From a virus (lineage: Duplodnaviria; Heunggongvirae; Uroviricota; Caudoviricetes): 39,156 nt of DNA. The notes below the pieces were generated by a model. That model did no database searches and was not told where the DNA came from. It worked only from the letters and a program-made list of their open reading frames with translations. Shown here in pieces: positions 30,099 to 30,230 of this stretch; position 1 is the first letter of the stretch; every line of letters starts with the position of its first letter. The stretch lies in IMG/VR virus record IMGVR_UViG_2695420487_000015. One strand, 5' to 3'. The position numbers were made by a program, and so were the translations under genes.

Positions 30099-30184
30099 GT
30101 TGCATGATTCCCATTTTGACAATGTTTGTAATCAATGGCCTCTGTTTGCCAACTTCTGCCACTGATTGCCCGAATTAGCAACGA

Positions 30185-30210
30185 TACTAATACTCGATTG
30201 AGTATTAGTA
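30185..30210. promoter_or_regulatory. Perfect 11-bp inverted repeat (TACTAATACTC-gatt-GAGTATTAGTA), candidate operator in the cI/apl switch region
   Basis: Read directly in sequence, 21 nt upstream of the cI start; overlaps minus-strand TTTACT-17-TAGTAT promoter-like elements facing apl. Confidence 0.5.
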
Positions 30211-30230
30211 AATACCCAAAGGAATAAATT

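Follow-up and report, generated by a model that had tools for sequence, protein, structure and literature searches.

A long palindrome between the apl and cI genes of a 186-like prophage raises the question of what reads it, and the original prediction was that it is the CI operator at the lytic promoter of a 186-type switch. The window, by which we mean the whole stretch of 39,156 nucleotides that was analysed, holds a 31.9-kb 186-like E. coli prophage between 49-nt direct repeats at 1628-1676 and 33529-33577. The repeats are 98% identical, the left one being the 3' part of a tRNA (1598-1673) with the anticodon CAT, and the 186 record has attB in ileY, which is consistent with integration of the prophage at the 186 attachment site in that gene. 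The genes are ordered as in coliphage 186 (B, D ... A ... cII, apl, then cI, int), and the int-cI operon faces the apl-cII early lytic operon in the 186 layout. Our reference was the annotated 186 record (GenBank U32222; CI sites at pR given as protein_bind 23011-23067), whose features include both promoters (pR and pL), seven sites for Apl, and for CI three sites at pR together with FL, FR and those at pB. Relatives were collected as loci encoding a CI relative, 56 of them genomic and 80 viral, plus 11 phage records. Three features frame the question:

29835-30098, minus strand: apl, first gene of the early lytic operon; its product is identical to 186 Apl at 87 of 87 amino acids
30185-30210, no strand: palindrome, proposed primary CI operator at pR (from symmetry, alignment with 186, and relatives)
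30231-30806, plus strand: cI, 191 amino acids, TTG start, helix-turn-helix region QKIQLARHFNIAASSLQNRYTRGTVS (from Pfam, PDB and identity to 186 CI)

The CI protein is 66% identical in amino acids to 186 CI, matches PDB entries 2FJR (E 5e-82) and 2FKD (E 8e-47), and carries the domains Phage_CI_repr (PF07022, E 2e-23) and Phage_CI_C (PF16452, E 4e-22), both of which are also found in 186 CI; CII matches PF06892. The TTG start at 30231 has AAGGA 7 nt upstream, an in-frame TAA at 30225-30227 ends the frame before it, and it is aligned to the ATG starts of relatives. An exact 7-bp tandem duplication, TTGATAC-TTGATAC, runs from this start (30231-30244) and adds two more ATACT motifs of the kind seen in the arms of the palindrome; the region of its second copy, GATACTCAG, is partly kept in relatives, though coding.

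The DNA match to 186 across cII and apl (29295-30153, 94.9%) ends inside the apl-cI spacer, and in the alignment the identity falls from 90% at 30040-30153 to 49% at 30154-30230. This drop, together with a CI only 66% identical beside an unchanged Apl, implies that operator and repressor changed together. On this comparison, the prophage is a 186 backbone with a different repressor and pR-region cassette. Of 5426 complete E. coli genomes, 37 carry the cassette with an identity of 99.6% or above, and these 37 copies hold no informative variation; a CI more than 71% identical to that of the prophage was found in no isolated phage of the collection. The place of 186 orf69, between int and the att repeat, is taken in the prophage by a 498-aa ORF (31821-33317, minus strand) with no match in Pfam, NCBIfam or PADLOC and with homologues only 28% identical, in two phage records of 33.8 kb. 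Judged by these searches and by a position typical of morons, it is a cargo gene of an uncharacterised kind.

The palindrome itself, TACTAATACTC-gatt-GAGTATTAGTA, was present in the 132-bp spacer as the original prediction had described it, with arms of 11 nt each (30185-30195 and 30200-30210) that are 100% complementary around a 4-nt centre and with 20 nt separating it from the cI start codon. An inverted repeat with arms of at least 11 nt and a loop of at most 8 nt arose in 4 of 20,000 dinucleotide-preserving shuffles of the 132-bp spacer, and the whole 39-kb window holds 2 such repeats against 0.085 expected. The spacer is AT-rich promoter DNA (37% GC), an ATACT repeat is present within the arms, and the outer bases of the arms double as promoter hexamers, so that a fortuitous symmetry with no function of its own has some appeal. 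Against it stand the rarity among the shuffles, the symmetry of the dyad, which holds in about 90% of the cells when 51 distinct relatives are compared, and its recurrence at the same position, in other sequences, in phages with other CI types. We consider chance symmetry highly improbable.

The second perfect 11-bp inverted repeat of the window, AAACCGGCATC-aa-GATGCCGGTTT at 23832-23855, has an A-run before it and TTT after it and lies downstream of a 405-aa minus-strand ORF (23953-25170); it looks like an ordinary intrinsic terminator. Matches to AATAC-N8-GTATT with at most one mismatch occur in the window at 28487, 28780, 29319, 30189 and 30528, five against 1.12 expected, and all five fall in a 2-kb early region. 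The one in cII (29319, AATAC-N8-GTATC) has the same sequence in 186 and is probably a coincidence.

How the palindrome relates to transcription depends on the promoters around it, which are the following:

30207-30212, minus strand: predicted pR -35, TTTACT, the same as the annotated 186 pR -35 and aligned with it
30184-30189, minus strand: predicted pR -10, TAGTAT, aligned with the 186 pR -10 TATATT at an equal 17-bp spacing
30080-30108, plus strand: predicted pL, with -35 TTGCGA (30080-30085) and -10 CATGAT (30103-30108), both hexamers identical to those of the annotated 186 pL
30116-30180, no strand: Apl operators, seven TTGCCA-like direct repeats, aligned with the annotated 186 Apl region (7 sites)

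The minus-strand pair that the palindrome had been said to overlap, TTTACT and TAGTAT separated by 17 nt, was found at 30212..30207 and 30189..30184. The palindrome spans the entire 17-nt spacer and reaches 4 nt into the -35 and 5 nt into the -10. Read on the plus strand, AGTAAA (30207-30212) equals the 186 pR -35 and ATACTA (30184-30189) stands in place of the 186 pR -10. The pair scores 8/12 against the sigma-70 consensus, and a generic promoter and terminator scan with a promoter threshold of 9/12 reported nothing in the switch region; the pair is credible because it is homologous to the annotated 186 pR and not by its consensus strength. Among 82 unique relatives the -35 is near-invariant, while the -10 reads TAATAT in some relatives.

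Convergent lytic and lysogenic promoters, as expected for such a switch, are predicted from the sequence, with the 186 pL hexamers unchanged and the pR hexamers aligned. By inference from 186, whose starts were placed from its promoter coordinates and then transferred to the window, pR would start at about 30175 toward apl and pL at about 30115 toward cI, in a region 90% identical to 186. The two promoters are thus predicted to face each other with an overlap of about 61 nt, compared with 62 nt in 186 when derived in the same way from promoter coordinates.

Alignment with 186 places the palindrome in the annotated CI-binding region of pR. Its dyad (30197/30198) coincides with that of the 186 sequence TATCTCcCAA/TTGaGAGATA (the slash marking the dyad), which lies inside the annotated feature 'CI, 3 binding sites, repression of pR'. 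The two hexamers likewise match the 186 pR elements in position, in agreement with the proposal that the palindrome occupies the place of a CI operator at the lytic promoter. The comparison with the 186 operators that had been suggested as a check gave the same dyad with a different sequence: the half-sites differ at 4 of 10 positions.

What the prophage shares with coliphage 186 (Eganvirus ev186; PMC3675496) is the gene order, the face-to-face arrangement of pR and pL that is predicted here, the position of the dyad relative to the -35 and -10, the inner half-site bases (CTCAA/TTGAG in the group consensus), an identical -35, pL and Apl protein, a homologous two-domain CI, and FR and pB sites of the ATTCAC-N5-GTGAAT class. 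It differs in the outer half-site bases, which are TAATAC/GTATTA here and TATCTC/GAGATA in 186, in having a longer and perfect palindrome, in lacking recognisable flanking pR operators, and in a decayed FL with a pR-type site at the FL' position. The recognition helix reads AASSLQNRY here compared with ASSSLSNRY in 186 (S36A and S40Q in the numbering of the window), and the helix-turn-helix region carries the further changes N30R, D33N, A47T and I48V. Since both the half-sites and the recognition helix differ, the prophage is probably heteroimmune to 186; with these two differences and 49% DNA identity at 30154-30230, it would not fall into the 186 immunity class. The P2-like immunity classes (the C repressors of P2, W-phi and P2 Hy dis) offer a parallel, in that close relatives differ for the most part in a cassette of repressor and operator amid conserved surroundings, and are heteroimmune as a result (PMC1904268, PMC3448106). 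The P2-type C repressor is a smaller, unrelated protein acting on direct repeats, whereas here a 186-type CI is paired with an inverted repeat, and the CI immunity classes have been little studied (PMC3448106).

A different DNA-binding protein could in principle be the one that binds the palindrome: Apl, some other regulator of the phage, or a protein of the host (IHF or LexA, for instance). The Apl operators, as described in PMC7498355, are repeats spaced about one helical turn apart between pR and pL, with TTGCC cores that are invariant in 4 phages; the last of them ends at 30180, adjoining the palindrome, and 186 Apl binding is known to spread to flanking DNA (PMC7498355). However, Apl sites are 6-bp direct repeats and not inverted repeats, and Apl is the same protein as in 186, yet the palindrome sequence differs from that of 186. 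Symmetry of the CTGT-N8-ACAG type, as for LexA, is absent from the palindrome, and across relatives its sequence follows the type of CI and not that of Apl or of the host. Binding by such another protein in place of CI is therefore very unlikely.

How the palindrome follows the CI type can be seen among the relatives. A match to AATAC-N8-GTATT with at most one mismatch stands at the offset of the palindrome in 85 of 96 same-type loci, defined as those with a CI 75-99% identical and the helix IAASSLQNRY. The consensus of this group is TACTAATACyCAAwTGAGTATTAGTA, and some members have a perfect 26-bp palindrome, while the commonest form is asymmetric like the 186 operator (CCCAA/TTGAG); on these alignments, the perfect 11-bp arms of the window are one variant of a family site. 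Phages with other CI types have different palindromes at the same position relative to cI. In 32 of 56 loci, the stretch 96-108 nt upstream of the codons for QKIQLA holds a dyad that scores at least 8 of 10, compared with 0.9% of control windows, and the pR dyads by CI type include TATCTCcCAA (186), TAATGCGATT (EtG) and TAACTCCATA (Xenorhabdus prophage L045), among others. In Erwinia phages EtG and ENT90, Yersinia phage GCS667 and Enterobacter prophages, a palindrome lies as far from cI and from the -35 as it does in the window, and A-type sites stand near -370 (FR) and near +300 (FL). The half-sites themselves differ, being AATGCGA-tttt-TCGCATT in GCS667 and ATATTA-tttt-TAATAT in ENT90; EtG-type prophages, L034 among them, have the GCS667 arms around a centre that reads ttat.

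Operators are more similar between loci with the same helix-turn-helix (0.81) than between those with different ones (0.54), a comparison confounded by relatedness, and identity in the Apl-site region was uninformative as a control for relatedness, the segments being unaligned. Since close relatives conserve the spacer throughout, the palindrome does not stand out by its conservation. The AASSLQNRY helix is shared by phages with different operators, and specificity is for that reason not set by this helix alone. A group of Enterobacter prophages (L018-L023, L053 and L104-L148; CI about 80% identical) keeps the pR palindrome and the FL' site, lacks the FR A-type site and a 186-like cII, and has a different 112-aa ORF after a short Apl-like start, which indicates that the same immunity cassette has been joined to a different early operon.

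The relatives also bear on whether the palindrome acts as RNA. It lies downstream of the predicted pL start and close before the cI start codon, so that a hairpin in the leader of the cI mRNA might control translation or stability instead of, or besides, protein binding, and the 146-nt pL leader does fold with the palindrome as an 11-bp stem (z = -3.5 against shuffles). The relatives give this reading no support: covariation is absent in 51 distinct relatives (0.070 compared with 0.067 in shuffles, a value reached by 153 of 500), and columns 20 and 27 are unable to form a standard pair in 27 of the 51 sequences. The asymmetry of the consensus is the same as in the 186 operator, and at this place the sequences found with other CI types are quite unlike it and have short arms. 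There is no Rfam family match, no T-run follows the palindrome, hence no terminator, and the generic scan gave no terminator-like site; an intrinsic terminator or structured RNA element is thus not supported. We regard a role as a leader hairpin as improbable.

Because position, symmetry, promoter homology and co-variation with the CI type all point the same way, the palindrome is very probably the primary operator at which CI silences pR, the early lytic promoter. The binding of CI, its oligomeric state and looping are inferred from 186, for which occlusion of pR, oligomerisation of CI and relief of interference on pL have been described (PMC3675496). By analogy, each subunit of a CI dimer would use its helix-turn-helix to bind one of the two half-sites (approximately TAATACyCAA, 10 bp to the left and to the right of 30197/30198), and the bound protein would fill the 17-bp spacer and overlap both pR hexamers, excluding RNA polymerase and keeping apl, cII and the replication genes off. 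As in 186, CI would probably form a higher oligomer through its C-terminal domain, which might also contact weaker adjacent DNA as well as FR (29819-29835), the site at 30528-30545 and the pB pair. Silencing of pR would in turn relieve interference on the weak convergent pL, so that CI would indirectly sustain its own synthesis.

CI probably has several sites here, of which the palindrome would be the strongest, since 186 has three at pR, two helical turns apart, in addition to distal sites. The pR flanks of the prophage hold one clear palindrome and a half-site-like candidate, AATACCCAA, 22 bp to the right (30211-30219), for which no convincing partner was seen. Inspection at 21-22 bp on either side and a scan across CI types with each phage's own half-site did not find flanking copies at a consistent offset; the weak leads were +22 in the type of the window and +30 in the EtG, ENT90 and L033 types.

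In a 186-type switch the distal operators FL and FR flank pR at about 300 bp to the left and right; the distal sites of the prophage that could cooperate with the palindrome are as follows:

29819-29835, no strand: FR operator ATTCACATAAAGTGAAT (186 A-type CI site), identical to the annotated 186 FR
30497-30513, no strand: decayed FL copy CTTCACTCTTAGTGATG (186 FL is ATTCACATTAAGTGAAG), at the homologous codons FTLSD
30528-30545, no strand: pR-type site AATTCACCATTGAGTATT, a candidate distal operator, matching the palindrome core inside cI
2063-2111, no strand: two A-type CI sites, ATTCACAAAAAGTGAAT (2063-2079) and ATTCACCATTTGAGAAC (2095-2111), aligned with the annotated 186 pB sites

The A-type label rests on the statement about pB in PMC3675496, which describes two A-type sites with a spacing of 32 bp, and on the annotated 186 record; the pR palindrome is given no class name. 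FR, in the interval that separates cII from apl, has a distance of 371 bp to the pR dyad and is a perfect match, of which none is expected by chance. Counted from the dyad, 44 of 56 loci carry it between -344 and -376, and 41 of these between -368 and -376, with any type of pR operator. The pB pair is likewise spaced 32 bp apart, over the promoter of the late activator gene B (1831-2049, minus strand), and is kept in most of 63 different pB sequences. We considered whether CI of the window type has lost the use of A-type sites, a notion weakened by six viral contigs with such a CI, all of which have the A-type pB pair, in at least three sequence backgrounds. Across the loci behind this comparison (L001-L068 and L149-L228), these patterns suggest that ATTCAC-N5-GTGAAT is a class of site common to otherwise heteroimmune 186-like phages.

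The left side differs. At the homologous codons, FL has 3 mismatches in the window, and in the group with the same CI type it has at least 2 mismatches in all members examined, with synonymous sites free; the decay shows in an E-to-D change and in a Leu codon that varies freely as CTN. With other CI types, FL stands unaltered as ATTCAC[AT]TTAAGTGAAG, and its TTA and AGT codons are fixed. Beyond the FL copy by 31.5 bp, and 339 bp from the pR dyad, lies the pR-type site at 30528-30545. When up to two mismatches to the palindrome core are allowed, the window holds this match and no further one besides the palindrome itself (0.10 expected). Of the 96 same-type loci, 70 carry AATAC-N8-GTATT at this offset with one mismatch at most, the site coincides with the lowest synonymous diversity of cI among 87 unique relatives, and a putative cryptic FL' has been placed at the equivalent position in 186 (PMC3675496). 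This suggests that the left distal operator has been re-specified in the immunity group of the prophage.

A more general reading, which we offer as tentative and somewhat less likely than not to hold, is that CI uses two tiers of sites: a universal ATTCAC-N5-GTGAAT tier (FR, FL and pB), which would be conserved whatever the immunity type, and a private pR palindrome that would set immunity, with the left distal operator re-specified in this CI group. There, FL has decayed in all same-type loci examined, and a copy of the private type at FL' would be kept within cI by constraint at the DNA level. Heteroimmune 186-like prophages could then cross-regulate each other at the late activator promoter pB and at the looping sites, provided that every CI type does bind the universal sites.

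In conclusion, the palindrome is an expected part of a well-understood 186-type switch, with a specificity that is unstudied in isolated phages, and the finding leaves the general concepts unchanged. As annotation, it fixes the immunity region for a prophage present in 37 of 5426 complete E. coli genomes and for many Enterobacter prophages, giving positions for the two promoters pR and pL, for the array of Apl sites, for the proposed primary CI operator and for the distal sites that are probable, and predicting heteroimmunity to 186. The relatives form a natural series of repressor and operator pairs on an otherwise constant scaffold, which could show how the variant helix-turn-helix of 186 CI reads two classes of site and how much the position and type of a distal operator weigh in looping.
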